A DNA stretch of 64,000 bases from Cyanobacteriota bacterium (GCA_033764955.1 JANRIL010000024.1:1-64000); one strand, 5' to 3'. Shown: positions 1 through 35,931, numbered from the stretch's first letter. Program-made: numbers and translations. Notes: generated by a model not told the origin, from the letters alone.

Positions 1-434
1 TGTTCGTTCAATCTTTGACGCTGGATGTATCAGAGCTGTTTGAAGAACCAGAGCCGATTCAGTACCCTGCCAACCGCAAGCAGCAACTATCTAGGCAGGA
101 AGAAGGCTCCTTGGTTGGCGATGTCGATAAGGATGCACTGCTGAGTTGGATAGACCAGACAGTCATGGAACCACCGCTTAATGCGTTAGAGATGGCAGCG
201 CAACTACGGGATCTGGCGCATGGGGAGACTGTGGAGGAATGGTCAAGGGCGATCGCCCAGTATCTTCGTCAGTTCCCCTCAACTATTTGTATCTCTGATT
301 TGCAGCAGGCGTTAGCAATGCCTCTGGTGGAGCTATGGTTGGGTTTATTAATCGGCGGCTACTCCTTAACCCAGCACGGTGAATTTTATGATAATCAGAC
401 GCTCTGGATTATTAATTATGATGGAGAGGTATAG
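1..434 (+). CDS. Hypothetical protein, probably 5'-partial (frame open to the window edge)
   Basis: ORF 15..434 whose frame is open from base 3; acidic, with C-terminal LWLGLLIGGY-QHGEFY; no family I can name. Confidence 0.6.
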   Translation, partial: FVQSLTLDVSELFEEPEPIQYPANRKQQLSRQEEGSLVGDVDKDALLSWIDQTVMEPPLNALEMAAQLRDLAHGETVEEWSRAIAQYLRQFPSTICISDLQQALAMPLVELWLGLLIGGYSLTQHGEFYDNQTLWIINYDGEV

Positions 435-498
435 GCTGCATCATGGTGCCCAGCCTTGTCCTACGGTAAGAGGCGTTATCCGTTCAAGCAATACCCTA

Positions 499-843
499 AT
501 GACCAACGCTGTCTTGCCAACGTCCAATCTTCCCAGCCTAACCATCAACGACTTCCTGATCACCAGTTGGCTACATGGCAAGAGCCACGACACCCAACTT
601 GCCTATCGTCGAGACATTGCCTGCTTCTGGACAATCCTAGAGCCAGTGCCACTCACCCAGATTGCTCTCCAAGATTTACAGCAGTTTGCCACTGCCCTAG
701 CAACACGGGGAGATGCCCCTGCGACCCAACGTCGTCGCCTCAACACGCTGAAATCATTGCTGACCTATGCCCATGAGTTGGGAGAACTTCTAAGCAATCC
801 CGGACGATTGCTCAAACCACCCATAATTTGCATAAGTCGATGA
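499..843 (+). pseudogene. Truncated tyrosine recombinase/integrase (N-terminal SAM-like core-binding domain only)
   Basis: WLHGKSHDTQLAYRRDI...ATQRRRLNTLKSLLTYAHELG...NPGRLLKPP is a XerC/D-like N-domain; stops before any catalytic domain; similarity ends near 822. Confidence 0.8.
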
Positions 844-1005
844 AATCAAGATGAAATCGTTTGAGATCGATCGACCGAACAACATCCTGAATTTTGGGTT
901 AATTAGCCACTGCAGAACGGTGATTTCACCCTGAATTCATAATTTTATGTTTTCTTCTAATTGAGGATTATTTGTACTAAACTCAATCTCACCTCATGGT
1001 TTACT

Positions 1006-1135
1006 AGGGCGTGTTTTAAAACCCTCAAAGCTAGAATGGAAATAGCCGTAATTCAAAGATAGCTAACAGACATTGGTCACACGCAATCCAATTTCACGCA
1101 AAGACTTAACCAATCACCAATGGCAACGACTCCAC
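1006..1135 (+). mobile_element. IS5-family remnant (possible left end plus transposase N-terminal fragment)
   Basis: RKDLTNHQWQRL (1097-1132) resembles the IS5 N-terminal 'DLTDxQWxxL' motif; preceded by (CTA)GGGCGTGTTTTAAAAC, a plausible IS end. Confidence 0.55.
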
Positions 1136-1140
1136 CGTGG

Positions 1141-1239
1141 TTATGCGATCGCTGCAATTCCCAGCAGAATCATCAAAACACCTAAGACAATTGCCAATGC
1201 TGAAGTTGTTCTGGTTTCTCTAAAATCTTCAAAAGTCAT
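1141..1239 (-). pseudogene. Truncated HdeD-family membrane protein (32 aa)
   Basis: Read by hand: MTFEDFRETRTTSALAIVLGVLMILLGIAAIA*P, with GGAGGAG RBS upstream; resembles HdeD first TM helix; abuts the IS remnant. Confidence 0.55.
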
Positions 1240-1344
1240 AGCTCCTCCCAAAATGTTTTGCTAGGTTGTTAGATCTTGAAAGAGAGACGCGATTAACCCT
1301 TGTCTGTACAAGAGTTATCTCTCCCTTGTGCTCCTTTGCCCTCT

Positions 1345-3966
1345 CTAAGCGTTGACCAGTTCAGGTGATAAGCGCTTCAACACCAGTCGTTCATGTTCCA
1401 CATGGATGTAGATTGTGTCGCCTTCGTGAAACTCGCCGCGTAGAATCGCTTTGGCAATCGGAGTTTCTAGTTCTCGCTGAACCGCCCGCTTCAGGGGACG
1501 AGCACCGTAAACGGGGTCATAACCGACTTGAACAATCCAATCGAGAGCCTCGTCGGAGATTTTGAGCAAGAGTTTACGCTCGCGCAGTCGCTCCTCTAAA
1601 TGCTGCACTTGTTGTTTGACAATTTCGCGCAACTCGTCCTTCCGCAAGCTGTGGAAGATAATGATTTCATCAATGCGGTTGAGGAATTCGGGGCGGAAAC
1701 TTTCTCGCACTGCTTCCATGACGCGATCGTGCATTTGTTCGTACTTGCTATCGTCTCCTGCCACATCCAAAATGTATGTTGAACCAATATTGCTGGTCAT
1801 AATCGCGATCGTATTTTTAAAATCTACTGTGCGTCCCTGAGAATCAGTGAGGCGACCATCATCCAGGATTTGCAGCAGGGCGTTGAATACATCAGGATGA
1901 GCTTTCTCAATTTCGTCAAACAGAATGACAGAATACGGTCGGCGGCGAATCGCTTCGGTGAGTTGTCCGCCTTCTTCATAACCCACGTAACCTGGAGGCG
2001 CACCGATGAGACGGGCAACGGCGTGTTTCTCCATGTATTCGGACATATCGATCCGCACCAGTGCAGCTTCGGTATCAAACAGATATGCCGCTAACGCTTT
2101 TGCCAGTTCTGTTTTTCCCACCCCGGTCGGGCCTAAGAAAATAAAGCTAGCAATGGGACGATTCGGGTCTGCCAACCCAGCACGGGAACGTTGAATTGCA
2201 TCAGCAGCAGCTCTTACAGCTTCGTCCTGACCAATCACACGTTGATGTAGCTCTTCTTCCAGATGCAAGAGTTTTTGCATTTCCGATTCAACCAGTCTGC
2301 TCAGCGGAATCCCCGTCCACTTGGAGATAATTTCGGCAATGTCAGCTTCGGTAACTTCTTCGCGCAACAGAGATTTACCGCTAGTCTGGATTTGAGCGAG
2401 TCGCGCTTCGGCTTCTTCTAGTTGTCGTTGTAGCTCAGTGAGTTTGCTGTATTTCAGTTCTGCTGCCCGGTTGAGGTCGTAATCGCGTTCGGCTTGCTGA
2501 ATTTCTACATTGACACGCTCAATCTCTTGTCTAATTTGGCGAATGCGATCGATGATTTGCTTCTCTGCCTGCCATTGAGCATTGAGGGCATCTTGGCGTT
2601 CTTTTAACTCTGCAAGCTCTCTCTCTAGGCGTTCTAACCGCTCTCTGGAAGCACTGTCTGTTTCTTTTTGCAGTGAAAGCCGCTCCATTTCCAGTTGCAG
2701 AATTTTGCGATCGATTTCGTCTAATTCTTCTGGTTTGGAAGTAATTTCCATTTTTAGTTTAGCCGCCGCTTCATCCACCAAATCAATCGCTTTGTCGGGT
2801 AGGAAGCGATCGCTAATATATCTTGCAGACAAAGTAGCTGCCGCAACTAACGCACTATCAGAAACCTTCACGCCATGGTGTAACTCGTAGCGCTCTTTCA
2901 AACCGCGCAGAATTGAGATGGTATCTTCCACATTGGGCTGATCGACATACACCTGCTGAAAACGACGTTCCAAAGCCGCATCTTTTTCAATGTACTTGCG
3001 GTATTCATCTAGCGTGGTGGCACCAATACAACGCAGTTCGCCGCGAGCAAGCAGCGGCTTGAGCAAGTTGCTAGCATCCATTGATCCTTGCGTTGCACCC
3101 GCACCCACTACCGTGTGAATTTCGTCAATGAACAAGACGATTTGTCCCTGTGCTTCTTGGATTTCTTTTAAGACAGCTTTCAGGCGTTCTTCAAATTCTC
3201 CCCGGTATTTGGCTCCGGCAATTAACGCACCCATGTCTAAAGCGATTAGTTTGCGATCGCGCAATGATTCCGGGACATCACCACTGACAATGCGCTGCGC
3301 TAATCCTTCTACAATTGCCGTTTTACCGACACCGGGTTCACCAATCAGCACGGGGTTATTTTTAGTCCGACGAGAAAGGATTTGAATCGTGCGACGAATT
3401 TCTTCATCTCGTCCAATCACTGGGTCGAGTATGCCCTCATGTGCCAATTGGGTTAAATCGCGTCCGTATTTTTCTAGCGCTTCATATTTAACTTCTGGGT
3501 TTTGATCTGTCACTTTTTGACTCCCTCGAATCTGTTGAATGATGGTGCGGAGTTTTGTTTCATCCAGTCCAAATTCTTGAAACAACCCTTTACCAAAGCG
3601 ATCGTCTTTGGCAAAGGCTAGTATTAGATGTTCAATAGAAATATATTCATCACCAAACTCTTTGCGGTATTGTTCGGCGCGATCGAGCAGCGTCTCTAAA
3701 CTGTGTCCGATATAGACCGAACCACTGCTAGCCCCCGATACTTTGGGCTGACGGTTGATAAAGTCGATAGTGCGCTCGTGTAGTTTTTGAACATTTACCC
3801 CGGCTTTGTTGAAAATAGAACTGGCGAGACCTTCCTGTTCCAGTAGCGCTGGCATCAAATGTTCGCTCTCAATCTGCTGCTGCTGAAACTGCTTGGCAAT
3901 TTCGGGAGTCCGAACAAGGGCTTGCCAGGCTTTTTCGGTAAATTGCGCGGGATTGGTTGGTTGCAT
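1345..3966 (-). CDS. clpB: ATP-dependent disaggregase ClpB
   Basis: 873 aa; Walker A GEPGVGKT and GPTGVGKT, middle coiled-coil domain, GARPLKR. Confidence 0.97.
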
Positions 3967-4010
3967 AATCGTGCCCCTTCGCTGAGAAATAAATTATTTT
4001 GTTAATGCTC

Positions 4011-4328
4011 TTAATTACGAATTTGTAATTCAGCTCGGTAGGCACGCAGTTGCGCCTTGAGTTGGGCAATTTCAGTTACCATATCTAGCACCATTGCTGC
4101 TCCGACCCAATTCAAGTTCAGATCGTGGTGCAACCTTTGAATCTGCACAACGCGAAAGAGATCCTGTCGGTGCAACATGATTCCTACAGGTTCAATTAAT
4201 CCCAGGCGGGCAAATCGTTCTAGCAATAAAACCGAGGTTTGAGTGAGGTAGGCGGCTTGCTCGAAACTATAGAGGCGATCGCCTGTTTCTGACCACACCA
4301 CGCAAGACAAACTCAGGTTAGAACTCAT
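4011..4328 (-). CDS. cbpM: Chaperone modulator CbpM (MerR-like HTH)
   Basis: RLGLIEP...[21 protein letters not shown]; overlaps the cbpA stop by 4 bp. Confidence 0.85.
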
Positions 4329-5332
4329 AACCGCACCTCTTCTAAGCTCTGACGGGAATTAAAACTACTGACCTGCTGCAATTTTTCATAGCACTCTCTT
4401 TCTTGGGGACTCAAATCTTTGGGTGTCACAATTTTTAACCGCACGATCAAAGCGGTACGATTACCTTTTGGATTGCGCCAGCCCTTGCTACGTAGCCGGA
4501 GTGCTTGGCCGGAATCCACACCGGCTGGAATCGTCATCGTTACCTTGCCGTCGGGCGTGGGAACATCTATTTGTGCGCCAAGTACCGCTTCCTCTGGGCT
4601 GACAGGTACTTCGCAAGCAAGATTGTCGCCCTCAAATTTGAAGAAAGGATGGGGCAATACTTCAATTGTCAGATACAAATCGCCGCGTTGCTGACTAAAA
4701 GGACTCATCTGTCCTTTGCCTTTTACCCGAATGCGGCTTCCCGGTTTCGCACCCGGCGGAATGCGAACAGTGATAGTTTCTCCATCAATTTGTAGCCGCT
4801 TCTGTGTACCGTGAAACGCTTCAGAAAAAGTAAGCGCGATCGCCGCTTCTGTATCCTGTGCGGGAACATCAGTGAAGCGGCCGAAGGGGTCTTCTCCATA
4901 GCCAAAGTCGGCGTATTCCCGGAATCCTTCTGGTCTTCTTGTAGTGCGATAATTCGCTGTGCGCTGCCTTGTACGACCGCCACTGCGACCTAACCCTCCC
5001 AGCAATTCATCAATGAAATCATCAAAGTTGCCATACTGGCTAAAGTCATAACCTTGTGTATCCGCCCCTCTGGGTGGAGGTGCACCCGCCGCAGCCTGTT
5101 GCCAGTACTGACCATACTGGTCATACTTCTGGCGTTTTTCCGGGTCGGACAGCACTTCATTAGCTTCGTTAATTTCTTTGAACCGCGCTTCCGCTTGCTT
5201 ATCGTCAGGATTTAAGTCCGGGTGATATTTCCGTGCCAGTTTCCGGTAGGCTTTTTTGATATCCTCCGGAGTGGCGTTCTTACTGACACCCAGAATTTCG
5301 TAATAATCTTTGAAATCGGTTGCTGCAACCAT
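4325..5332 (-). CDS. cbpA: DnaJ-class co-chaperone CbpA (J-domain, no zinc finger)
   Basis: KDYYEILGV...YHPD J-domain, G/F region, DnaJ C-terminal domain; coupled to cbpM. Confidence 0.88.
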
Positions 5333-5483
5333 CAGCACCTCTTGAGATTAACGCGATGGGACGGGTGGGCAGAGGGATTGTTGCCGATTTGGAAACCTTA
5401 TCCAAATCGGCGTTTTGCAACAGGCTTGCAGTTGATCAGGGTTGCAGCATGGCTAACCCTCACCTTGATAGGTTTAAACCCAA

Positions 5484-6371
5484 TCAAGCATTAGCGGTTT
5501 GCTGACTTTCGGCTCTGGACACCCGGTTGAAGAAACTAGAGAACTTTTCCCGGAGTTTGGCAAATGGACTTTCTGTTTTCTCCTTTGCCCTGATTTGCCG
5601 CTCAATGTCTCTGATTGCCCGGTCAAGTTCTTTGTACTCGGGATCGCGTCTAGCATAGCCCAGTTCTCTCGCCAGCTTGAGGTGGGTGCGAGCATCTGCC
5701 AGCGACCGCAGTACTTGGTCCCGATTTTGCTGGTCCTGATTTTGCTGGTCCTGATTCTGTTGATCCTGTCCCTGAGCGGCTAAAGCCATTGCAGCAGCTA
5801 GTTCAGTCAGGGCATTAATCAGTGGAATGGGTCGAGATTGTTCTGTCACCACCAGAGTTGAGAGTGCCAGTTGTATTACCGCTCTGGCTTCAGCGGTTCT
5901 CCCTTGATGCAACAATCGGGCGGACTCCTTCATGGCATCAGGATACGTCTCAAGTGGCAGATTGACGGTTGATGTGCGAATCTCGCTCACCAGGTTGTGC
6001 AACAGTGCCCGCCCAGTCGGAAAATCTTCCTCATTCACAGCCCTCTTAGCTTCATCGCGAATTGGCTCAATCAAATCAAAATCCCGAGGGGCAAGATCGA
6101 TAATGGTGATCTGAGTTGACACAGGAACCAGAGCCAGTTCAGGGTAGCGTGCCAGGAGAATATCCAGTTTTCCAGTTGCCCGTTCCAGAGCTTGAATGCT
6201 TTCCTGAGTGTTTTCCTGATCCATGGCGTTGATTGCATTGCGAGTTTCTGCGATCGCGGCGACTGCGTCCTGATCTAGGGAACTTTGAGCCTCATTCGTT
6301 GCCTTTTGCCTCTCCTGTTCAATCTCCTGCTGAGATTGAGGATTGGGCTGATTCAATGTCGTAGAGTTCAT
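5484..6371 (-). CDS. YfdX-family protein
   Basis: ALERATGKLDILLARYPELALVPV and SEIRTSTVNLPLETYPDAMK are YfdX-like motifs. Confidence 0.8.
   Translation of the reverse strand: MNSTTLNQPNPQSQQEIEQERQKATNEAQSSLDQDAVAAIAETRNAINAMDQENTQESIQALERATGKLDILLARYPELALVPVSTQITIIDLAPRDFDLIEPIRDEAKRAVNEEDFPTGRALLHNLVSEIRTSTVNLPLETYPDAMKESARLLHQGRTAEARAVIQLALSTLVVTEQSRPIPLINALTELAAAMALAAQGQDQQNQDQQNQDQQNRDQVLRSLADARTHLKLARELGYARRDPEYKELDRAIRDIERQIRAKEKTESPFAKLREKFSSFFNRVSRAESQQTANA
5724..5768. repeat. 3 x 15-bp tandem repeat encoding QDQQN in yfdX
   Basis: attttgctggtcctg twice plus attctgttgatcctg. Confidence 0.9.
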
Positions 6372-6442
6372 AATTTTCTCCTTGTTTGTTAATTTGTTTT
6401 GGGTTTGGAATCGGTGGTTTTTTCATCGCGATCAAACAATGT

Positions 6443-7123
6443 TTATGCACCGCTACGATACACTGGCTTTTTCGGCGGCAGCGTGTAGAGTAATGTCAAT
6501 CCCACGCATAACACCAATCCGGCGATACCGCTCCACAACGACAGCACAAGCGCTAAGAAGTAAAACACGCTAGTTAATGTGTACCTGCGGGTGAGGTAAG
6601 CGATGAATTGACCGTCGAGATTTCTGTTCAGCAATCGATGATTGCGGCTGGCATAGAGCCAGATGAGCGCCCATGTCAACACTGATAAGAACAATACCAA
6701 TGCATACAAGACGACTACGGCTTGCAACTGCTGTGGGTCAGTAATGCATCTAGCCACGACCGCCGTTGGAAACGGCAGAAACGCAATACACATCAGAAAC
6801 AAGAGGTTGAACAGATTAAATACTTGATCACTCCGTTCGTAGAGTTGGAAGACATAGTGATGATTTGCCCAGAAAATTCCAATGACCACGAAGCTGAAAA
6901 TGTAGGCGAAGTAGGACGGCCACAATACGAATAATGCTGAGGCAAGACTTAGTGTGTTGGTTGTTCCCTCCGTAAAGTTCAACTCTGGCACGCGAATTTC
7001 CAGTATCAGCAGCGTGATGGCAATGGCAAACACGGCATCGCTAAACGCTTCAATCCGCTGGGTGTCCGACTCCGTTGATGCTCGTGATTTCTGCATAGTT
7101 GACTTGATTCTGTGTTCCACCAT
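6443..7123 (-). CDS. TMEM175-family (DUF1211) potassium channel
   Basis: RIEAFSDAVFAIAITLLILEI signature, WANHH, FLPFPT; multiple TM helices. Confidence 0.9.
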   Translation of the reverse strand: MVEHRIKSTMQKSRASTESDTQRIEAFSDAVFAIAITLLILEIRVPELNFTEGTTNTLSLASALFVLWPSYFAYIFSFVVIGIFWANHHYVFQLYERSDQVFNLFNLLFLMCIAFLPFPTAVVARCITDPQQLQAVVVLYALVLFLSVLTWALIWLYASRNHRLLNRNLDGQFIAYLTRRYTLTSVFYFLALVLSLWSGIAGLVLCVGLTLLYTLPPKKPVYRSGA

Positions 7124-7175
7124 ACCTTTGTGCCTGCTTCGATGATAGTAGAGGCGGCCGTTCTGACGGTCAGGC

Positions 7176-7847
7176 TTAGGGCAAGATCGTGATCCAGTTT
7201 TCCACCGAGGTGATTCCTGGTGCTGACCACGCTGCCCGCTCCGCCTCTTGCTTCTCAGCCCAGGAGCGCACCGCCCCCCTCAGGATGACCTTGCTCCCCT
7301 TCACCTCGACCGTGATCCGCAGCGCGTCGGTCTCCGCGCTACGCACCAGTGCCTGCTCAATTTTCTGCTTGAGTTCCGACGGCGACACGCGGGGCTTGAT
7401 GGTGAGCAAGTTGGCTACCCCCTTGACGCCTTTCAGACGGCGGACAACCCGCTCGACATCGCGCTTCTGGTACTCCCACTCGACCACACCCCTGAGCGTG
7501 ACCCAGCCCTTGGAGACCGTGACATCGAGATCATCGATGGACACGCCGACATCCCACTCCAGCGCATGAATGGCGGCTGCGGCAATGTCGGCATCAGTGC
7601 GCTCGGCGGAGCTAGGTAGCCGCACCTCAATGTCGTTAGCTACAGCCAGTACGCCACGGACGCGGTGGGCAGCTTCTTCGGCAGCCCAGCGCTTGTAAAA
7701 GGAATCGACCCAGCCTGTGAGCGTAACAACACCGTCTTTGATGGCGACGCCGACTTCGGTAGACTGGACGCGGGAATCCCACTTCAACTCATTCAGCACA
7801 TCCTTTTGGATTGCCTCGTCAGTTCGGGTTACGGTTGCAGTTGTCAT
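7176..7847 (-). CDS. Triple BON-domain (OsmY-like) protein
   Basis: Three BON repeats (GVVTLTG, GWVTLRG, KVILRG), AAWSAPG end. Confidence 0.92.
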
Positions 7848-7899
7848 GGTTGTTTCTCCTTTAAGTTGTTTTGTGACTGGAATACGTGCCTTGTTCGTC

Positions 7900-7957
7900 G
7901 CGATGGGCTACGCCCCACCGTAGACGATGGCGCAGAGCGCCCGTTGGAAGCGATCGC
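7900..7957. repeat. HIP1 site interrupted by two short dispersed repeat-like inserts
   Basis: GCGAT[gggctacgccccaccgtagacgat][ggcgcagagcgcccgttggaagcgat]CGC; removing both inserts restores GCGATCGC. Confidence 0.6.
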
Positions 7958-7969
7958 AACTCTGGAAAT

Positions 7970-8743
7970 TTACGATGTGACTTTAGACTTGGAATACGTG
8001 CCTTGTTCGTCGCGATCGAACATCTGTTTGACCCGATCCCAAGCCTTCGTCAAGGCATTATCTTTTCCATTGGCTTCTCTGAACGACCGATTGTGGGTAT
8101 CAACAAACGTTTTTTGTGCGTCGTCCGACAAATTTGCTCTAATTTCTGGTGAAATCTGCTCATTATCTGCCAGTTCACCTTTTGGTTGACGGGGAATCTT
8201 CATGTCAGTGATGGCGACTTCTTCCGCACCCGCACTTTCTAACAGTGAGACAACTTCGTCTGCTTGTTCTTGTGGCACTTCCGCGACCAGTAGAAACTCA
8301 CCTGTTTTCAGGCGTGTTTCGTAAATAGCAGCTTTGTCCTCTGGCATACCCAATGCGATTAAGGCAGATCCAATGCCTGCTCCCAGGGAACCATATAAAG
8401 CACCGCCTGCCGCTCCTAATAATGCTGCTCCCAAAGGACCTGCTGCTACTACGGTGCCCAAAAAGGGAATGAACAACACGCCCACACCCGTCAGTAAAGC
8501 CAAGATAGAACCAAATAGCGATCCAAAAATCGCTCCGGTGGCGAGTCCATCCAAGATCACACCTTGTTTAGTCACAAATCCGGAGATGCGAGTTTCGGTG
8601 TGGAAGTCGCGACCAATAATCGAAATGTGATCTTTGGAAACGCTGCGATCGATTAGACGCTCAACCACTTCTTGCATCTTCTTCTCGTCTTTGAAACTAG
8701 CAGAGACACTTTTGAGGATGGTTTCTTCAGATGTAGAAGTCAT
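7970..8743 (-). CDS. General stress protein (YflT-like/glycine zipper) fused to C-terminal ChaB domain
   Basis: ISIIGRD, G-rich TM with IPFLGTVVAAGP, GMPEDKAAIYETRLKTGEFLL; tail LSDDAQKTFVDTHN...AWDRVK is ChaB-like. Confidence 0.8.
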   Translation of the reverse strand: MTSTSEETILKSVSASFKDEKKMQEVVERLIDRSVSKDHISIIGRDFHTETRISGFVTKQGVILDGLATGAIFGSLFGSILALLTGVGVLFIPFLGTVVAAGPLGAALLGAAGGALYGSLGAGIGSALIALGMPEDKAAIYETRLKTGEFLLVAEVPQEQADEVVSLLESAGAEEVAITDMKIPRQPKGELADNEQISPEIRANLSDDAQKTFVDTHNRSFREANGKDNALTKAWDRVKQMFDRDEQGTYSKSKVTS

Positions 8744-8838
8744 AAAAATTACTCCAAATTAAAAAACTAGATAACATCATGAAATGTGGCGCAGATTTAA
8801 GGACGCGGGGACAGGAAGAGAGTATTTGATGATTTCAC

Positions 8839-8861
8839 TGCGTCACCCAGAGGGTGACGCA
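8839..8861. repeat. Perfect 10-bp hairpin downstream of dnaK
   Basis: TGCGTCACCC-AGA-GGGTGACGCA; no U-tract. Confidence 0.7.
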
Positions 8862-8930
8862 CGCAGGCTCGCTAAAGCAGTTCCTTTAACTCTGGAAGAG
8901 CAACGGACTGCTCGCTGCGTCTTGTTACGT

Positions 8931-10835
8931 TTATTCCACAAAGTCTGCATCGATGACATCTTCACCGCCGCCTTGACGGTCTGTAGAAGTACCACCGTTT
9001 TCTGTGGAAGTACCACCGTTTGGAGATGCACCTGCTTGTGAGTAGACCGCAGTGCCGATTTGCATCAGGGCTTGTTGAATTTCGTTGGTGAGCGACTTCA
9101 TGCGATCGAGGTTGTTCTGCTCAATTGCCTGACGCAAGTCTCGAATTAAGCCTTCCACGCGGGACTTGTCTGCTGGTGGCACTTTGTCGCCCAAATCCTG
9201 TAGTTTTTTCTCGGCTTGATAGGCAATAGAATCCGCCATGTTTTTGGTGTCGATTTGTTCGCGCCGCCTACGGTCTTCTTCCGCATTGCGATCGGCTTCT
9301 TTCACCATCCGCTCGACTTCAGATTTGTCGAGGGTGGATGCACCTGTGATGCTAATGGACTGTTCTTTACCTGTGGCTTTTTCTCTGGCAGTTGCTGACA
9401 GAATCCCGTTAGCATCAATGTCAAAGGTAACTTCGATCTGTGGCGTACCTCTGGGAGCGGTCGGAATCCCATCTAGTCGGAAGGTTCCCAGGCTCTTGTT
9501 GTCGGATGCCATTTCGCGTTCACCTTGCAGAACATGGATTTCTACGTTTGTTTGTCCATCAGCCGCCGTTGAGAACACCTCAGACTTCTTCACTGGGACA
9601 GTGGTATTGCGCGGAATAATCTTGCTCGTCACACCACCTAGAGTTTCAACACCCAGCGACAACGGCGTGACATCTAGGAGCAGTACGTCTTTTACCTCAC
9701 CCCCAAGCACACCCGCCTGAATCGCTGCACCCATTGCTACGACTTCATCTGGGTTGACACCCTGGTATGGGTCTTTGCCGATTATCTGCCGTACCAGTTG
9801 CTGAACAGCCGGTATCCGAGTTGCACCACCCACTAGGATTACTTCGTCAATATTTGCGGGACTCAGTTTAGCATCGCGCAGAGCTTGTTCGACGGGAATG
9901 CGGCTGCGATCGAACAAGTCGGCGCACATTTGCTCAAACTGTACCCGCGTTAAGGTCATATCTAGATGTTTCGGACCTTCCGGGGTTGCAGTAATAAAAG
10001 GTAAGTTAATGTTCGTCTGTGTTGCGCCTGACAGTTCAATTTTGGCTTTTTCTGCGACTTCGGTGAGGCGTTGCAGGGCTTGGTTGTCTTTACGGAGGTC
10101 GATGCCTTCGTTACGCTGGAATTCGGTTGCTAGCCAGTCTACGATTCTCTTATCAAAGTCATCACCGCCCAAGTGGGTGTCGCCACTGGTCGCTTTCACT
10201 TCAAACACACCATCACCCACTTCTAGGATAGACACGTCAAACGTTCCACCCCCTAAGTCAAAGACTAGGATGGTTTCATTGGTTTTCTTGTCAAGTCCGT
10301 AGGCGAGGGCAGCCGCCGTTGGCTCATTGATAATTCGCAGAACTTCAATCCCGGCAATTCTACCGGCATCTTTGGTCGCTTGCCGTTGAGAGTCATTGAA
10401 ATAGGCAGGGACGGTAATTACCGCTTGCCTCACCGGTTCTCCCAGATAGGTGCTGGCATCATCGATCAGCTTGCGGACTACCTCAGCCGAGATTTCTTCG
10501 GGTGAAAATTCCTGGTTCAGAGCGGGACAGTTTAGCTTGACGTTGCCATTACTGTCACGTACCACTTTGTAAGTAACTTGTTTTGCCTCTTGGGTGATTT
10601 CATCATACCTGCGCCCAATGAACCGCTTAACGGAATAATAGGTGTTTTCTGGGTTCATTACACCCTGGCGTTTGGCAATTTGCCCGACAAGTTTTTCGCC
10701 CTTCTTGGTGTAGGCAACCACAGACGGAGTTGTGCGACTGCCTTCTGTGTTCGCAATGACGATGGGTTGTCCGCCCTCCATTACAGCGATACAGGAGTTG
10801 GTCGTTCCTAAATCAATACCAACGATTTTTGCCAT
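8931..10835 (-). CDS. dnaK: Molecular chaperone DnaK (Hsp70)
   Basis: [33 protein letters not shown] tail; AGGAG RBS before ATG 10835. Confidence 0.97.
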
Positions 10836-10995
10836 CGTTAACAATCTCCTTCAAAGATTGAGATAAAAAATTGAGAATCTGGATTCAGGACAAGTTGAAT
10901 AAATGGTATTGAGAAGGAAGAGGGAAGAATCTATACCTTGAACCTTCTGCCCTCTGGCTCCTTAGCACTCAGGATTTGGCTGCGGTTTGAATCGC

Positions 10996-11096
10996 GGCTA
11001 ACAATGAGCGGAGGTCGCAAGAGCCATCGTGGTACACACCGTTGATGAAAAAAGTCGGCGTGCCGTTGCCCCCGCTCTGAATTCCGCTTGTCATCT
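10996..11096 (+). repeat. Degenerate attC-like palindromic element between hsp20 and dnaK
   Basis: GGCTAAC...GAGCGG(11006)...CCGCTC(11072)...GTCATCT; same layout as the elements at 11974 and 57579 but more decayed. Confidence 0.3.
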
Positions 11097-11131
11097 CCTG
11101 CTCTTAAGGGAGTGCTTGGGAAAACATTGCG

Positions 11132-11602
11132 TCACTGCCCTTGCCCGTTGCCCCCGTGCCCGTCACCTAAGTTTACTTTCACAACCTTGTTCTTATCTTC
11201 TTCAGCCTTGGGCAGCTTCAGCTTGAGAATGCCATCTTTGTATTCTGCTTGCACCTGATCGTGCTGGACACGGGTAGGCAACGGAACTACGCGCTGAAAC
11301 CTGCCATAGCGGAATTCGGTGCGGGTGATGCCTCTTTCTTCCGTTTTGATTTCTGACTTGCGCTCACCGGAAATAGATACTGCCTCTGGCGATACCTGCA
11401 CATCTAAGTCTTTGGGGTCTACACCGGGAACTTCTACCTTGAGATGAACTCCATCAGGGGTTTCTTCTATCTCCGCAGAGGGAATAAAGGCAATGCCTTC
11501 CTCTCCTCTACGACCTGTTGGTGCTATTTCATCAAACAAGCGGTTTAACTGCCGCTGCAAACTTTCAACTTCTCGGAAAGGTTCCCAACGAACGAGTGAC
11601 AT
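11132..11602 (-). CDS. Small heat-shock protein Hsp20/alpha-crystallin
   Basis: MSLVRWEPFRE, EFRYGRFQRVVPLP, AEYKDGILKLKLPK. Confidence 0.95.
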   Translation of the reverse strand: MSLVRWEPFREVESLQRQLNRLFDEIAPTGRRGEEGIAFIPSAEIEETPDGVHLKVEVPGVDPKDLDVQVSPEAVSISGERKSEIKTEERGITRTEFRYGRFQRVVPLPTRVQHDQVQAEYKDGILKLKLPKAEEDKNKVVKVNLGDGHGGNGQGQ

Positions 11603-11836
11603 AATTTCAAGTCTCCTGATGATCTATACTTGGGTGTTTAGAATTCTGCATTAGGCTGGGTTTTGTCAGTCGCTGAAACAGCGTTGCTATACATGCCAGT
11701 TCTGAACTCTGTTGACACTGTAAAAAAGAAATCTAAGGGCTTTCTGAGGAAATTATGATGATTGGGGATTGGGACAAGGCAAAATTGGTAAAGGCGATTT
11801 TTTCCCTGTAGATGTCTCTCTAGAGCAAGCTAAGTG

Positions 11837-11974
11837 GAGCATGTTTTGAACGGCGATGTTGACCCCTCGGCTGTGCTGACGCATCGCTTGCCTCTAACTG
11901 AAGTAAAGCAGGGCTTTGAGATGTTCAAGCACAAGCAAGACCAATGCATCAAAGTGATGCTGCAGCCGGGCTAG
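11837..11974 (+). pseudogene. C-terminal fragment of a zinc-dependent alcohol/formaldehyde dehydrogenase (YbdR-like)
   Basis: Hand translation EHVLNGDVDPSAVLTHRLPLTEVKQGFEMFKHKQDQCIKVMLQPG*; in-frame stop at 11831 just upstream. Confidence 0.75.
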
Positions 11975-12046
11975 TTGTGCGACGGCAGGTAACTTTGAAC
12001 CCGCGCCGATAACCTCTGTACCATCCGTACCAACGCATTGTTAGGT
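11974..12046 (-). repeat. attC-like site downstream of the restriction endonuclease
   Basis: Minus strand ACCTAAC (RYYYAAC) 11 bp after the stop; GTTGGTACG can pair with CGCACAAC with one bulged base; final GTT core is missing. Confidence 0.55.
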
Positions 12047-12057
12047 AGCTGTTGCAT

Positions 12058-13026
12058 CTACAAACTGCATAGCCAACGAGAAATAGATGCAACTTGATTC
12101 TCCTCATTCAAGTTGGCAGCATTACTGAGCGTCCCGCTTACTAATTGCTCCCAAATTTCACCAGCCATCCTTTTCTCAATCGCTGCTCCTACAAAAAATG
12201 TCAGGGGCGAATGACCAGCATCTGCGAATGCCTGTCTAATACGGTTGAGTGCTGCTTGTGCTGTTTTCCAATGCTCGTCAGCTCCGGCTGGATCAATTCC
12301 GCCTTTCAGTTCTCCCAATGCAATTGTGTAAGGCTCAACTTCAATAGGTTCAATTTTGCTGGATTTATTAGCTGGCAATGCTTCTGGCGCAAGATTGAAC
12401 AAACAGAGGTCTACATTACTTTTAACTAACGGAATATTTAGGTTATAGATAAGTTCACGTCTACCAAGAGCGCTCTCCCAACTGAGTCCGCGTAAAGAAA
12501 ATTCAATTTCTGCATCGTCGTTTGTCATCGCTATCCACCTTTTTGTCTTTGAATGCAGCCAATGATATTTTTGACCTGCAATTGTAAGAGTTGAAAGAAT
12601 AGCACGAGTTAGTTTTCTTTGTGCCAAAGCTCCACCAACATTACGCATTGAACCACCAAGCGTATCGCCACGAGTCAATAGAAATCTAAAGACTAATTCC
12701 TCTACAAAGTTTGCACCTACTGGCTCAAGAAAGTTTTTGATTAGACCGTTAATCGCATCAGTTTTATCCTCTGGTGTCAAATGAGCAAGAGATTTGTCAG
12801 ACAATCCTGCCGCAGTCAACAATCCCATCTCGATACCCTGAATGTCTAGCAAATCAGCAGGACTTTTAGCTTGATTTGCCGCTTCTTGAAGTGCCCTTGC
12901 TTCTGCAACATAAGGGGTAGCCCGTCGATTTTTCTCAAGCGCAAGTGCTACAAAGCCCGCACGAGTCGCTTCATAGGTTGTGACAAGATCGTCACTAGAC
13001 TGAAGATGGCTACGATAAGCAGTCAT
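12058..13026 (-). CDS. Type II restriction endonuclease, AvaI/BsoBI family (predicted site CYCGRG)
   Basis: [41 protein letters not shown] match BsoBI/AvaI as I recall them. Confidence 0.92.
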
Positions 13027-13035
13027 AGGATCAGA

Positions 13036-14469
13036 TTACTGTTTTTTCCATACGTAAACACACTTTCTCAAGGGGTCACGCCCATGATTGCCCATTTGCT
13101 GGCTACTGTTACCCTTATTGCTAGGTAAAACGAGAATATTTTCAACTATAAAACCTAGCTTCTCTGCAAAGTCAGAGAGGAGCATATCTACTGAAATACT
13201 TACGCCAGAGTAACGCACATTGTCATTGACCATAAACAACAATGCTCCAGGTTTAAGTGCGCGAGAACATTCTTGTATGACGCAAGCCATTTCATAGAAG
13301 TAACCTCTCACCATCCTGGGTATTCCGTTATTATTTAATACACCCTGGAGTTTCTGATTATCTAAATATCTCAGGATAGCTTGCAATAGAGGTTGTGAAT
13401 TTGCAGTTTCTAAAGCCAAGCTCCAATTTGGATTGATAGTTAATAAATCTTTTGAGCGATTTTCGACTGTACAGCTTAACATCTCCTGCCGGAGATCAAT
13501 TAGTCCCTTTTCAGAAATATCTAACAATGCAAGCTCTAATGCATAAGTACGAGTGTAATCATATCGATTACAATAGGGTGGAGATGTGATAACAGCATCA
13601 TAAGTTGCATCAGGTAAAGTCGGTAACAATTTGAGGCAAGACCCTTTGTAAAGCTCGATTTTACCTTGCGATCTTTTGAGCGAAAAAAGTTCTACCTGAT
13701 GTGTAGGAGGTTCCAGATCATCAACAATTTCTTCTATTTTACTAGTGATGGCATAATCAAAATCTAAGATTTTACCTTTATTGAAAGGCCTTTTCCCCTG
13801 CCCACGACCGGAACGATAATCCCAACGAAGATATTGCCCATCTTTGCGAGTGTAACTTATAGACTCCAAAATGCAAAGTAAAGCGAAGAGCAAAACTTTT
13901 TGAAGTCTTTCGTTTTCCTGATAACAAGCTCCAAGGTATTGCTCAATTGCTCTTTTGTTTTCTGTAGAATAAGCTCCTTTTGTAATCTTGAACTCTGGCA
14001 AGCAGAATTCTTTTTCAGCCTGTTTCCATATCTGCGAACTTAACCAAGTCTTGAGACGTACAAGATCATCAGATCTAAATTCGGTATCGAGAATCTTCTT
14101 CGTTTCAATAATCTGTTGACCAATGGGTAACAATTCAATACCATCGGCATCAAGTCCCAAATCACTAGCAGCAAACAAAGCTGTTCCGCTACCTGTAAAA
14201 GGATCTAGTATCTTGCCCTGCTCAAACCCGTATTTCTGAAATAAAAACTCAACAAGAGAAGCAGAAAAGGCTTCTTTGTACTTGTACCATCGATAAATAG
14301 GTCTTGCTTTGTTAGCTTGAAAACTTACTAAAACTCTGGTGAGTGCAGGCTGAACTAAAAACTTGGTTTGGAAATGATGTTGCAATCGTTTGTCAAGGTT
14401 GTTAATTTCCCTAAGAGCGCTAATTTGCACTTCAGGGGCGATGTCGGAGATGCTTGACAGACTTGTCAC
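13036..14469 (-). CDS. Cognate N4-cytosine DNA methyltransferase
   Basis: [11 protein letters not shown] motif precedes TSPPY catalytic motif; 9 bp upstream of the endonuclease; AT-rich. Confidence 0.9.
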
Positions 14470-20005: not shown

Positions 20006-21157
20006 ATGACGCAACCCAATATTTTGGACATCTTGGGAGCAAAAGCCACGGCTACGCCCTCTTCAGCGACATCTGAATCTAGGATCCCGACTTTAGCTCA
20101 GTTGGTGAAAGAAGCCCATAACCAGGGCTACTCGGATATTCATTTGGGGGTGGGCAGACCTCCCTATTTTCGTAACCACGGCATCATCGAAAGAACCAAC
20201 TATCCGCTGGCGAATGAGACCCATTTTTGGAGCTGGATGGAGGAGATTCTAAACCCTGCTGAGATTGACAAATTTCGGGAGCAGCAGGATTTTGACGGTG
20301 CCTCCGAATATGAGTTTACCCGTGTACGGATCAATGCGTTTATGACCCTGCGGGGGGCGGCGATGGTGCTGCGTTTGATCCCTTTACAAATTAAAACCCT
20401 CGATGAACTGGGCTTGCCGGAGGTTTTTAAGAAGCTTTCTATGGACTATCGACGCGGATTGATCCTGTTAACGGGAGAAACTGGATCCGGTAAATCCACA
20501 ACCTTAGCCGCCATGATTGATCATATCAATCGCCATCTGCCCAAACATATTGTAACCATCGAAGATCCCATTGAATTTGTGCATCAAAACCACAAATCTT
20601 TGATCAATCAGCGGGAGGTGGGGATGCACACCAGTGATTTTGATCGGGCATTGCGGGCGGTTTTGCGAGAGGATCCCGATATTATTTTGATTGGAGAAAT
20701 GCGAGATCGTAATACCGTCAGCACCGCCCTGAAGGCAGCGCAAACCGGACATTTGGTGCTGGGGACTCTCCATACGAATAGTGCAGTTGCCAGTATCGAG
20801 CGGTTGCTTAACATCTATGAGCCACCGGAACAAGAGGTGATGAGAATTCAGATTGCCGAGGCGTTGGTAGCAGTGGTTTCGCAAATTTTGGTTCGCACCT
20901 ATGATGGCAAGCGTACCGTTGCCCAAGAAATTATGCTCAACACCGATGCCATTAAAGATTGGATCCAACGGGGAGAAATCGACAAAATTGAGGCAGTGAT
21001 CCCAGAGTCACGCTTTGATGGGATGCAAACCATGAATCAGGCTCTCTATCACCTCTATCAAAGGGGCAAGATTAGCCAAGAGGAAGCTTTAGCCGCTTCT
21101 CCCAAAGCCAACGAGATGATCCACATGATTAAGGGGGCAGGTAGCTCCGCTTGGTGA
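20006..21157 (+). CDS. pilT: Type IV pilus retraction ATPase PilT/PilU family
   Basis: GETGSGKST, TIEDPIE, LREDPDIILIGEMRD, TGHLVLGTLHT. Confidence 0.9.
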   Translation: MTQPNILDILGAKATATPSSATSESRIPTLAQLVKEAHNQGYSDIHLGVGRPPYFRNHGIIERTNYPLANETHFWSWMEEILNPAEIDKFREQQDFDGASEYEFTRVRINAFMTLRGAAMVLRLIPLQIKTLDELGLPEVFKKLSMDYRRGLILLTGETGSGKSTTLAAMIDHINRHLPKHIVTIEDPIEFVHQNHKSLINQREVGMHTSDFDRALRAVLREDPDIILIGEMRDRNTVSTALKAAQTGHLVLGTLHTNSAVASIERLLNIYEPPEQEVMRIQIAEALVAVVSQILVRTYDGKRTVAQEIMLNTDAIKDWIQRGEIDKIEAVIPESRFDGMQTMNQALYHLYQRGKISQEEALAASPKANEMIHMIKGAGSSAW

Positions 21158-21345
21158 AGGGATCCCATTCGTTTTTTGCCTGCCTGTGAAGGAGAGAGAG
21201 AGCTTGAATAGAATACTTTTTCCCACAAGCGGAGACAGGATCGAGAACACTTTTCTCCTGTTGACAAGTGCAGAAGAAACTTCCTGAGCTTCCTCCACGT
21301 CGTGGACATGCTGGTTCATATTTAAAGATCAATGGATCCCAATTC

Positions 21346-31995: not shown

Positions 31996-33501
31996 TTATT
32001 GATCTCCCTCATGGGCAGTGCTGACGAAATCAGGATAGGCAATATTGCCATGTTCGCCAATATCGAGTCCGGCGATTTCTTCTTCCACCGAAACTCTTAG
32101 CCCAATCGTAGACTTGATGATCTGAAAAAGAACGAAACATGTGACAAACGACCAGAGGGCAATCGCCCCCGCCCCCAAGATCTGTACCCCCAGATTGCCC
32201 CAACCCACACCAGACTCGCTATGGGCAAAGATAGGAATGCCCGCCGCTATCACTCCCCAGGCTCCACAAACCCCATGCACCGAGATCGCCCCCACGGGAT
32301 CATCAATCTTGAGGTTGGCTTCGATAAACAGCACTGCGAATACAACCAAAATTCCCGCAATCGAGCCAATCAAAATAGCACCCAAAGGATGCACCGTGTA
32401 GCAACCAGCCGTAATCCCCACCAGTCCTGCCAGGGCACCGTTGCCCACAAATGTCATATCCGGTTTGGTAAAAACAGCCCAGGAGGTGAACAGTGCCCCA
32501 ATCGCCCCCGCCGCCCCCGCTAGGTAGGTATTAAAGGCAATCCAGCCAATGTCAGGAATAGCTGCCGTTGTGGATCCCGCATTAAAGCCAATCCAACCAA
32601 ACCACAAGATAAAAACCCCCAGCATTCCCAATGGCAGGCTATGTCCAGGAATCGCCCTAGGCTGACCATCTGAGCTATATTTACCCGTGCGCGGTCCCAG
32701 CGACAAAGCCCCCGCCAAGGCGGCGGCTCCTCCACAGAGATGCACTACCCCGGATCCGGCATAGTCGATATAGCCTAAATTGCCTAACCAACCGGAGGTG
32801 CCACCGTTATAAGCCCCAAACAGGCTATTCCAAGCCCAGCCGCCAGAGATGGGGTAAACGATCAAAGAGATAAAAACAGAGTAGATCAGATAAGCAATAA
32901 ACTTGGTGCGCTCAGCCATTGCCCCCGAAACGATGGTGGCTGCCGTCGCTGCAAACACCAGTTGAAAACAGAAAAAAGTGAATGGCCAGCCTGGATTGGC
33001 ATCAGGGCTATCCACCACCGTAGAAGTATTGGCACTCGCCCAATTAAAAACAAACCAGTTGATTCCTAAAACCCCAGTCGGGTTAGACCCAAACATCAAA
33101 CCAAACCCCATAAACCAAAAGGCACAGGCTCCAAAACAAAAGTCCATCAAGTTTTTCAGAACAATGTTGGCCGCATTTTTGGCGCGGGTAAAGCCACACT
33201 CCACCATGGCAAAGCCCGCCTGCATGAAAAAGACGAGGGTTCCCCCCACCGTTGTCCAAACAATGTCAGCGTGGTATTGGCTAGTCGCTAAGCTCTTTTT
33301 TAATTCTGCCAAAGCCGCTGGAGAGAGGGTTTTCGCCAGCTCAGGTAGGGTTTCTTCGTCTTGGGCAAAACCAGGCCAATGGCTCAAAATCAACCAAAAC
33401 CCTAGCATCATCAAACTGATTTTTAACCAACGGGGCAGTTTCCTGATGGGATCCAGCCACAGTTGGCGGAATGGTGCTGTCTGAGTGAGGAAGCGATCCA
33501 T
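31996..33501 (-). CDS. amt: Ammonium transporter
   Basis: FFMQAGF, SGAMAER, DYAGSGVVH, WFGWIGFN, DDPVGAISVHG. Confidence 0.96.
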   Translation of the reverse strand: MDRFLTQTAPFRQLWLDPIRKLPRWLKISLMMLGFWLILSHWPGFAQDEETLPELAKTLSPAALAELKKSLATSQYHADIVWTTVGGTLVFFMQAGFAMVECGFTRAKNAANIVLKNLMDFCFGACAFWFMGFGLMFGSNPTGVLGINWFVFNWASANTSTVVDSPDANPGWPFTFFCFQLVFAATAATIVSGAMAERTKFIAYLIYSVFISLIVYPISGGWAWNSLFGAYNGGTSGWLGNLGYIDYAGSGVVHLCGGAAALAGALSLGPRTGKYSSDGQPRAIPGHSLPLGMLGVFILWFGWIGFNAGSTTAAIPDIGWIAFNTYLAGAAGAIGALFTSWAVFTKPDMTFVGNGALAGLVGITAGCYTVHPLGAILIGSIAGILVVFAVLFIEANLKIDDPVGAISVHGVCGAWGVIAAGIPIFAHSESGVGWGNLGVQILGAGAIALWSFVTCFVLFQIIKSTIGLRVSVEEEIAGLDIGEHGNIAYPDFVSTAHEGDQ

Positions 33502-33584
33502 GCTGCTTGTAACCTACTAAAAACAATAAGATTTCTGAAAACTTTCGGGATCCTTATGAATGGCTATTTATGGCTAATTGTGTA

Positions 33585-33627
33585 AAGCTACACGATTTAT
33601 CCTGAGGTCATAGGTAACATACTATAC
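33585..33627 (-). promoter_or_regulatory. NtcA-activated promoter of the leftward amt
   Basis: GTAacatactaTAC at 33614-33627; TAGCTT (TAN3T) 23 nt downstream on the minus strand. Confidence 0.75.
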
Positions 33628-33817
33628 AAATACAGAGAGGAATGCTTTTGAAGTGATGTTGCTTATGGCTGCTTAGTTAAAGAAACAAAGCCTGGGAGCG
33701 GAAGGCTGCCAACACTTTGACGGTATCAGGACTGACTCAGCCTCGCTAGATACAAAGGGATCCCCTAGATTCTGGAGCCTAGGGTCAATCCTCATTTGCC
33801 TAGGTTCTGATAATTTT

Positions 33818-33859
33818 GTGTCGCATGTTACATTTCTCTGGCACATCAGCCCTTAAAGT
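33818..33859 (+). promoter_or_regulatory. NtcA-activated promoter of the rightward amt
   Basis: GTGtcgcatgtTAC (33818-33831), 22-nt spacer, TAAAGT -10 box. Confidence 0.7.
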
Positions 33860-33902
33860 TAGCCGAGATTGTTGATATCGATTTACCTGGGACTTGATAA
33901 AT

Positions 33903-35381: not shown

Positions 35382-35406
35382 ATTTCCCTTTCTCGTTAAA
35401 CACTTC

Positions 35407-35487
35407 TAAAAAAAGATGCTTTGTCCGATAATAGGGTCTTAATCATTTGGATTACGATCTTATCCATCCTACAGAGCATTTTTTTTA
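35407..35487. terminator. Long imperfect hairpin after amt, possible terminator
   Basis: aaaaaaagatgctttgt...acagagcatttttttt arms with an inner gtcttaatc/gattacgat pairing. Confidence 0.5.
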
Positions 35488-35790: not shown

Positions 35791-35931
35791 GGGCGTTGCT
35801 AAATGCAACTATGAATCGCCCTTATCCCAAACCCTTCTCTCCAGGGAGAAAGGCTTAAAATTCTTGTTCCCTCCCTCTTTGGGGAAGGCTAAGGGTAGTT
35901 TGGCAATTCATGGACAGATTCAGCAACGCCC
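35791..35931. mobile_element. MITE-like element enclosing REP-like palindromes
   Basis: Terminal inverted repeats GGGCGTTGCTAAAT / ATTCAGCAACGCCC (13 of 14) plus inner ATGAAT/ATTCAT; non-coding. Confidence 0.65.

Follow-up and report, generated by a model that had tools for sequence, protein, structure and literature searches.

The window analyzed here, the first 64,000 nucleotides of the 217-kb contig C45 in a 3.8-Mb, 48-contig, 89%-complete assembly of a Cyanobacteriota bacterium (GCA_033764955.1, JANRIL010000024.1:1-64000), carries near its start a compact cluster of chaperone and stress-related genes. Open reading frame (ORF) calling, combined with Pfam and NCBIfam profile scores for the assignment of families, identified nine intact genes on the minus strand within positions 1141-11602, in the order hsp20, dnaK, YflT/ChaB, BON, TMEM175, yfdX, J-protein, CbpM-like and clpB, all of them full length and without internal stops. 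The gene content and order, the co-orientation and the truncated hdeD described for this region in the original prediction were borne out by the ORFs and by both profile collections. The whole island block, delimited by blastn homology to plasmid islands of Nostocales, extends from 1138 to 11787 on the minus strand. Homology broke off at 1138 and 11787 in every blastn comparison (L002 to L006; 92-97% identity), and contigs of relatives from four RNA-library runs diverged from the window at exactly these two positions.

The chaperone genes of the island, like all of its features given below, lie on the minus strand. The hsp20 gene (11132..11602) encodes a small heat-shock protein (PF00011, 72.8 bits) with 94% identity to the copies on plasmid C of Trichormus variabilis and in Nostoc minutum. 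The dnaK gene (8931..10844) matched PF00012 (871.7 bits), TIGR02350 (977.3 against a cut-off of 822.6) and PRK00290 (990.7 against 648); its called TTG start is probably 9 nt too early, and the orthologues are 634 amino acids (aa) long. Identity of this DnaK to the other island DnaKs compared was 92-96%, with values of 95.1-95.6% for the copy on T. variabilis plasmid C and for the main one of N. minutum. The class-B (CbpA-like) J-domain protein (4325..5338, 337 aa) is composed of a DnaJ domain (residues 11-73) and a DnaJ_C domain (164-306); no zinc-finger family was matched in Pfam and no CxxCxGxG motif was found in the sequence. Its gene overlaps by 4 nt with that of a 105-aa CbpM-like protein of the MerR_2 family (4011..4328; PF13591, 41.6 against a cut-off of 29), orthologues of which carry the annotation 'chaperone modulator CbpM'. 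The 873-aa product of clpB (1345..3966) is a canonical ClpB disaggregase (TIGR03346, 1409.5 against 1232.1, matched over positions 1-852 of the 853 in the model), with 96-97% identity to the ClpBs encoded by the island in five other records.

Between dnaK and the J-protein gene lie four genes of other families. A fusion of YflT, a glycine-rich membrane segment and ChaB is encoded at 7970..8743 (PF11181 and PF06150; hydrophobic region at residues 62-116), followed by a triple-BON protein without a signal peptide (7176..7847; PF04972 in three stretches, 167 bits) and by a TMEM175-family membrane protein, a putative K+ channel, with about six hydrophobic stretches when overlaps are merged (6443..7123; PF06736, 98.3 bits). 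The yfdX gene (5484..6371; PF10938, 123.2 bits) is of the YfdX1 type, and a signal peptide or hydrophobic N-terminus looked for in its product was not found.

Two further genes survive as remnants. Directly at the left junction, translation revealed the 5' remnant of hdeD (DUF308; 1141..1239), 32 codons followed by a stop, with 90.6% identity to residues 1-32 of the 186-aa HdeD of N. minutum (L004); full-length DUF308 genes follow clpB in L004 and in the Phormidium locus L002, and HdeD is annotated at this place in plasmids L005 and L006. Between dnaK and hsp20, alignment to L005 identified about 120 nt of the 3' end of a thioredoxin/DsbA-like gene, trx (approximately 10968..11088). Window positions 10916-11088 correspond to L005 20542-20713 and the window from 11088 onward to L005 from 21186 onward, the trx gene of L005 occupying 20594-21184. 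Since about 120 nt of the trx 3' end are retained, the difference is in this case a deletion in the lineage of the window.

The original prediction had raised the question of whether the same synteny recurs elsewhere, and it does, including on three conjugative plasmids. A YfdX scan of contigs representing one genome per species confirmed at least four loci (Microcoleus sp. F4-D5, [Phormidium] sp. LEGE 05292, Cylindrospermum sp. NIES-4074 plasmid1 and Nostoc minutum NIES-26), and all four genome loci among the matches listed held the whole cluster with its gene order preserved, the proteins being 89-97% identical. When 72,556 plasmids were searched at the DNA level, three matched, and these covered 92-95% of the 10.5-kb block at 94.2-95.3% identity: T. 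variabilis ATCC 29413 plasmid C, T. variabilis 0441 and Nostoc sp. C057 p057_B, each of them typed as conjugative (MOBP, MPF_T). IS1182 and other transposases lie beside the island in L006, L003 and L004, and three metagenome contigs (L100, L102 and L103) carry island copies or variants. The clustering of these genes is not a matter of chance, their order being repeated in at least eight other records with proteins 89-97% identical. N. minutum additionally contains a second, degraded copy (L084, L021), with a dnaK 92-93% identical to that of the window and large deletions that leave the dnaK 3' end fused to internal clpB sequence.

Comparison with the annotated plasmids, conjugative megaplasmids of Nostocales, revealed a fuller gene order, groES-groEL...hsp20-trx-dnaK-yflT/chaB-(adh)-BON-(TMEM175)-(akr)-yfdX1-yfdX2-J-cbpM-clpB-hdeD-yflT, in which akr is an aldo/keto reductase gene, groES-groEL lie a few kb past hsp20, and genes of the xanthine-dehydrogenase family lie beyond the terminal YflT-type 'general stress protein'. 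On these plasmids, the block is surrounded by insertion sequence (IS) elements, and a DUF1931 gene occurs near the island on both annotated cyanobacterial plasmids. The copies differ by whole-gene cassettes, TMEM175 being absent from T. variabilis, and BON and yfdX2 from the metagenome contig L100. Where other copies carry adh, an alcohol dehydrogenase gene, the window holds an exact 27-nt duplication (7878-7904 and 7990-8016), perhaps a scar of recombination or a sequence marking the boundary of a cassette; a weaker third copy of this repeat (78%) is located at 6406-6432, upstream of yfdX. The YfdX2 of L005, the paralogue lost from the window, has a hydrophobic, signal-like N-terminus (residues 7-37). 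With this protein lost and no such segment in the YfdX that was kept, the window copy is left mainly with the island's cytosolic portion.

The island clpB and dnaK are not the sole copies in the host. Its core clpB is located on contig C30 (67% identity to the island protein), a ClpC on C21 (48%) and two pairs of dnaK with dnaJ on C12 (70% and 60%); the host also has another hsp20. As the original prediction had supposed, grpE is missing from the island and would be supplied by the host, which has exactly one copy, on C12 beside one of the core dnaK genes. The two pairs and this grpE are found at C12 500-9700 in divergent orientation, on a 25-kb contig with a G+C content (GC) of 0.481. When compared with ClpBs of the Nostocales and Phormidium carriers, the host ClpB of C30 reached 67-70% identity and the island ClpB 96-97%; at synonymous sites, the window copy diverged from three other copies by 0.05-0.13. 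No YfdX turned up in 40 relatives (22 of the same family; 41 genomes with the host) or in 400 phylum-sampled genomes, at most five first-look candidates being scored per genome in the latter, save for one weak 78-residue match (E value 4e-4) in the phylum sample.

Phylogenetic trees of ClpB (71 rows, seven rows left out) and DnaK (23 rows) parted the island proteins from the host copies and placed them off the species tree. The six island ClpBs formed one clade (SH-aLRT 100) within a 45-row cyanobacterial clade (92; 98 for an inner clade of 43 rows), and the other of the two cyanobacterial ClpB clades contained the host ClpB, joined there to three proteins from the family of the host (100). 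Likewise, seven island DnaKs formed one clade (100), with a chromosomal DnaK of Cylindrospermum as its sister, and the copies of the host clustered with the host family. The conflict of the trees with host relationships, the near-identical copies in distant taxa and the absence from kin together exclude vertical descent and point to recent transfer between orders. Horizontal acquisition is therefore strongly supported by these comparisons and, short of an assembly artefact, all but certain, and the acquisition suggested in the original prediction was upheld by 94-96% DNA identity to distant blocks, by absence from kin and by both trees.

The origin of the individual parts was also considered. 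Judging from the trees, the island ClpB and DnaK are of cyanobacterial descent. Proteins resembling CbpM occur at 60-85% identity in many cyanobacteria, and a J gene or cbpM was found upstream of the chromosomal clpB of ClpB clade A in none of the fetched loci, each with 1.5-kb flanks, so that the J-cbpM-clpB linkage is a feature of the island. Relatives of YfdX comprised about 33 clusters at 87-96% identity, the named ones from Nostoc, Trichormus, Cylindrospermum and Phormidium; farther relatives occurred in cyanobacteria at 58-77% and in Planctomycetota, Sorangium, Acidobacteriota and others at 40-49%. The BON gene has a GC of 0.60 and a third-position GC (GC3) of 0.72, compared with a GC3 of 0.44-0.59 in neighbouring island genes, which suggests a high-GC donor for this cassette. 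Relatives of the BON protein (49-69% identity) adjoin YfdX in metagenome contigs L108, L112, L114 and L157, and in L118 one at 57% lies about 9 kb away from its YfdX. The GC of the island (0.49-0.50) exceeds that of the chromosomal chaperone loci sampled in its carriers (Nostocales 0.42-0.46, Phormidium 0.39-0.42). In the present host, the island would not stand out as a genomic island by deviant composition (0.494, the genome being at 0.515). Taken as a whole, the island is of mosaic make-up.

The nine genes are shown here to be intact and, as far as substitution rates can tell, under purifying selection. The ratio of nonsynonymous to synonymous substitution rates (dN/dS) was 0.11-0.20 for dnaK, clpB and the J-protein gene, which supports their function, and 0.18-0.32 for hsp20, cbpM and yflT/chaB. 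By family assignment, Hsp20, a class-B J-protein, DnaK and ClpB constitute a textbook disaggregation chain. In this chain, the small heat-shock protein would hold unfolding proteins in a recoverable state and keep aggregates workable, the zinc-finger-less J-protein would direct the island DnaK to these aggregates, and DnaK would recruit and activate the island ClpB, which would thread the aggregated chains. Nucleotide exchange would depend on the single GrpE of the host. ClpB-Hsp70 cooperation is species-specific, and this specificity would be bypassed by a ClpB that is shipped with its own DnaK and J-protein, offering a reason for the three proteins travelling together.

In Escherichia coli, CbpM modulates CbpA, and the CbpM-like protein of the island, whose gene appears translationally coupled to the J gene, may similarly tune the J-protein. 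The HspR model gave 24.4 bits on this protein against a cut-off of 105, and a HAIR-like (HspR-associated) inverted repeat, looked for with an HspR-type repressor in mind, was not found. Membrane, ion and osmotic protection could be added by BON, YflT-ChaB, TMEM175 and YfdX, and the net effect would be a raised tolerance of heat, desiccation or oxidative proteotoxic stress. Stress tolerance is thus inferred from the gene set, and the island looks like a transferable stress-tolerance kit.

Altogether, we consider it probable, at roughly 0.75, that 1138-11787 is one copy, acquired horizontally, integrated into the chromosome and partly eroded, of a modular protein-quality-control island of cyanobacteria, which would confer stress tolerance via its disaggregation set. 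Several observations weigh against this reading. The island is located at the very start of C45 in an 89%-complete assembly, and its junction with the host is known from the assembly alone. The window copy is without trx, adh, akr, the secreted yfdX2 and hdeD beyond 32 codons, and has no intact mobility gene beside it. Constraint on yfdX and TMEM175 is relaxed (dN/dS 0.45-0.6), and decay is evident in other carriers, namely in an interrupted, apparently frameshifted dnaK on the Cylindrospermum plasmid and in the heavily deleted second copy of N. minutum. The CbpM label rests on Pfam MerR_2 and on other annotators, the NCBIfam CbpM model (NF007617) scoring 26.8 against 138. Promoter-like sites (9 against 10.6 expected) and terminator-like sites (14 against 13.7) were at chance level. 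Contigs 90-99% like the island across 1138-11787 were present in RNA-library runs X15, X17, X18 and X20, from four studies, and were rejected as evidence of transcription, as the Logan contigs reached 21 kb and DNA carry-over is possible.

Much of this would also be expected of a transferred island that was carried in with a larger element and is now a truncated, decaying passenger contributing nothing: the 32-codon hdeD, the trx remnant, the missing yfdX2, akr and adh, the fragmentary adjoining recombinase, the broken dnaK and heavily deleted second copy in other carriers, and the dN/dS values of yfdX and TMEM175. This explanation is unlikely in view of nine full-length genes without stops and of the dN/dS of 0.11-0.20 for the chaperone genes, although the latter figure averages the whole path to the plasmid copies and not just the time spent in the host. 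A misjoin or binning error, by which the first 11.8 kb from a co-occurring filamentous cyanobacterium became attached to host DNA, would suit the position of the island at contig position 1 of a 48-contig, incomplete assembly, and no indexed sequencing run contained half or more of the sequence words of the window (the DNA runs with 0.34-0.39 of them were soil, rhizosphere and mine-tailings metagenomes). We give such an artefact only a slim chance, because the contig runs on through ordinary chromosomal genes (minC, minD, Tab2-like, amt) to its full length, no other piece of a plasmid island was present in the assembly (no match of at least 85% identity outside C45:1-12000), and the window copy has its own combination of deletions and is 4-6% different from every other copy. 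Additionally, a short repeat 190 nt past the junction has copies on three other host contigs, and no repeat shared by donor and host is found at the junction itself.

Several dnaK and two clpB genes are common in cyanobacteria, and two ClpB-like matches per genome were present in most of 60 sampled genomes, as would be the case if the cluster were an ordinary paralogous chaperone set inherited vertically in the host lineage. The probability of this is next to nothing, given that YfdX occurred in 0 of the 22 family members searched, that identity to copies from other orders is 96-97% for the island ClpB and 92-96% for the island DnaK as opposed to 67-70% for the core copies, that both trees part island from host copies with a support of 100, and that the block resides on conjugative plasmids. 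A different kind of alternative accepts an active island and assigns it to a specific client or state, such as photosystem II (PSII) repair in dehydration or the survival of dormant cells. The BON, TMEM175, ChaB, aldo/keto reductase and DsbA-like thioredoxin families point to osmotic, ionic and redox stress beyond heat, and a review describes a dehydration-induced pair of DnaK2 and J-protein (NfDnaK2/NfDnaJ9 of Nostoc flagelliforme) in PSII repair (PMC12157317). This pair would bear on the island only if NfDnaK2 were an island-type gene, however, and a small heat-shock protein with ClpB and a class-B J-protein is the classic disaggregation set, so that a dedicated role is decidedly improbable.

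The original prediction had likened the cluster to the tLST (transmissible locus of stress tolerance). This likeness stood with regard to shared families, mobility, ClpB in the place of ClpG and TMEM175 in the place of KefB, as a parallel and not as membership, and much of the shared content has been lost from the window copy. As listed in two publications, the components of the tLST are a MerR-like gene, sHsp20, ClpG, a small heat-shock protein, YfdX1, YfdX2, HdeD, Trx, KefB/C, PsiE, FtsH, HtpX and DegP (PMC7685784, PMC8290217); its core is formed by the MerR-like 'dna' gene, hsp20 and clpG in one unit, and ClpG binds aggregates by itself (PMC8290217), by which the tLST would avoid the problem of ClpB-Hsp70 partner specificity. 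Both systems are mobile, plasmid- or island-borne and modular. Measured against these listed components, the pan-island shares seven families: small Hsp20, an Hsp100 disaggregase, a small MerR-type protein, tandem YfdX1/YfdX2, HdeD, thioredoxin and a K+ transport protein. The island YfdX is a homologue of tLST YfdX1/2, aligning over 81-97% of its length at about 30-33% identity, so the sharing of YfdX was confirmed. Mobility of the tLST kind is evident from the three conjugative plasmids, the transposases beside copies and the recombinase fragment in the window.

The differences are nonetheless considerable. The island has a DnaK-dependent ClpB, and hence also dnaK and a J-protein, where the tLST has ClpG/ClpK; the ClpG/ClpK models NF033607 and NF033606 gave 819.6 and 813.8 bits on the island ClpB against cut-offs of 1900. 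FtsH, HtpX, DegP, Cls and PsiE are absent, and TMEM175 stands in place of KefB/KefC. The core triad of the tLST is not reproduced, as the hsp20 and MerR_2 genes of the window are 7 kb apart and the third member is ClpB. Of the envelope module yfdX1-yfdX2-hdeD, the window has one yfdX and the hdeD stump; fuller copies have all three, with J-cbpM-clpB between yfdX2 and hdeD. The window YfdX is without a signal peptide, and the hosts are cyanobacteria, the string 'cyanobacteri' not occurring in the tLST survey (PMC8290217). Since its disaggregase is a true ClpB and not ClpG/ClpK, the island is, by its gene content, a functional and architectural parallel to the tLST and not a member of it.

An equally close parallel, unmentioned in the original prediction, is a cassette of Actinobacteria. 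In a ClpB search of plasmids, clpB was found beside cbpM on plasmids of Rhodococcus, Nocardia, Gordonia, Arthrobacter and Streptomyces, and dnaK-grpE-J-cbpM-clpB is annotated on Rhodococcus and Arthrobacter plasmids (L098, L099). A figure legend also names a 'heat shock island' in Propionibacterium freudenreichii JS9/JS20 with an 18-kDa Hsp, DnaK, GrpE, CbpM and ClpB (PMC5644110). Like the cyanobacterial island, the actinobacterial cassette is borne on an accessory replicon or island and includes DnaK, a zinc-finger-less J-protein and a CbpM-like gene with a 4-nt overlap with the J gene, clpB lying directly downstream. Unlike the island, it has grpE, and YfdX, HdeD, BON and TMEM175 were absent from the two annotated regions. 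ClpB identity between the two systems was 57-59% and J-protein identity 37%, and actinobacterial cbpM was undetected by tblastn at an E value of 1e-3. Upstream of the Rhodococcus cassette lies a 'general stress protein' and downstream of it a thioredoxin, DUF1931 being close by; the surroundings of the Arthrobacter cassette include FtsH and an MscS-type channel, and a trypsin-like peptidase is encoded near both.

The succession of a class-B J-protein and a small (about 100 aa) MerR_2-family gene also recalls the cbpA-cbpM pair of E. coli, although the island proteins scored under the equivalog cut-offs of CbpA (PRK10266, 191.8 against 403) and CbpM (26.8 against 138). The E. coli pair is not known to be linked to clpB or dnaK. 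Among chromosomal cyanobacterial paralogues, the island ClpB falls within one of two ClpB clades, with 75-83% identity to its members, and the island DnaK is 80% identical to the sister Cylindrospermum DnaK; the island copies differ in forming their own tight cross-order clade and in their linkage to J-cbpM. Presumably, these paralogues are the ones named ClpB1/ClpB2 and DnaK1-3.

Relatives of YfdX were found at 77 metagenome loci, 33 of which, the island copies or variants L100, L102 and L103 among them, are at least 6 kb long. Homologues of hsp20 occurred at 20 of these 33, of BON and clpB at 6 each, of hdeD at 5 and of dnaK at 4. YfdX-small heat-shock protein stress neighbourhoods with exchangeable cassettes thus appear from their gene content to be widespread, with the tLST and the present island as two instances. 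The linkage of YfdX to small heat-shock proteins provides a handle on YfdX function. Two of these loci appear non-cyanobacterial: L112 (GC 0.54), in which Pfam identified an MscS-type channel, Hsp20, HdeD, an oxidoreductase, BON, YfdX, Hsp20 and PsiE, and L157 (GC 0.66), with DnaK, Hsp20, a DsbA-like thioredoxin, YfdX and an aldo/keto reductase, besides BON-like and TMEM175-like tblastn matches and LuxR-type and Crp-type regulators.

Mobile protein-quality-control islands are known mainly from Proteobacteria, where the tLST, which confers extreme tolerance of heat, chlorine or pressure, is relevant to food safety and hospital hygiene. Sequences and machine annotations of the present island genes have been publicly accessible for years, and heat-shock islands of the accessory kind are already known. 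A description of the island itself was not found in full-text searches, the coverage of which excluded most subscription journals; the sole related remark found was that the small heat-shock protein of plasmid C is probably horizontally acquired (PMC4152365). We tentatively propose, as a possibility at less than even odds, that the island is a self-sufficient disaggregase kit crossing cyanobacterial orders and bringing a step change in heat or desiccation survival, and at the same time one branch of a wider, undescribed YfdX-small heat-shock protein family, found in many soil phyla with BON, HdeD, thioredoxin, TMEM175, PsiE, DnaK and ClpB cassettes, of which the tLST would be the proteobacterial branch. 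A cyanobacterial island with ClpB-DnaK-J instead of ClpG would represent a second evolutionary route to transferable disaggregation, a natural experiment on ClpB-Hsp70 partner specificity and a candidate cassette for heat- or desiccation-tolerant cyanobacterial production strains. The hypothesis is directly testable because the island is present in genetically tractable strains such as T. variabilis ATCC 29413 (plasmid C).

Upstream of the island genes, a direct-repeat motif, TCCTCAGA-AAG-CCCTTAGA, was identified at 11732..11750 on the minus strand, about 130 nt upstream of hsp20, as a candidate regulatory site. The element comprises 25 nt with two 8-nt direct repeats 11 nt apart, and plasmids L005 and L006 have the same 25-nt element upstream of both hsp20 and groES, an arrangement that suggests common control; L002 has it as well. 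Further copies in the host genome numbered none at 0-1 mismatch and three at 2-3 mismatches. In the Phormidium locus (L002 15060-15078, minus strand), the motif also occurs past hdeD, between hybrid histidine kinase and response-regulator genes, and this placement hints at a two-component system in the same regulon. A search of window positions 1-12200 against Rfam returned no match at E values up to 1, and hence no known RNA thermometer.

The flanks agree with the original prediction of an integrase/IS remnant on one side and a restriction-modification system on the other. To the left, 379..843 on the plus strand encodes a tyrosine recombinase fragment consisting of the N-terminal SAM-like domain only (PF02899, 33.2 bits, no catalytic domain), and window positions 1-1140 are unique in the genome and matched none of the fetched loci. 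To the right, a BsoBI-type restriction endonuclease and a DNA methylase are encoded at 12058..14469 on the minus strand (PF09194, 556 bits, and a match to PF01555). With a GC of 0.41 against 0.515 for the genome and no homology to the plasmid islands, this pair is a neighbouring, separately foreign block outside the island. The gap separating the island from the restriction gene contains, at 11973-12055, a repeat of about 75 nt that recurs at 77-82% identity on host contigs C7, C38 and C9, possibly a miniature repeat element of the host. The rest of the window consists of ordinary chromosomal genes, among them minC, minD, a Tab2-like gene, a pilT-like gene and three amt genes; the latter encode ammonium transporters of 501, 495 and 490 aa within 6 kb (window 31996-37766).

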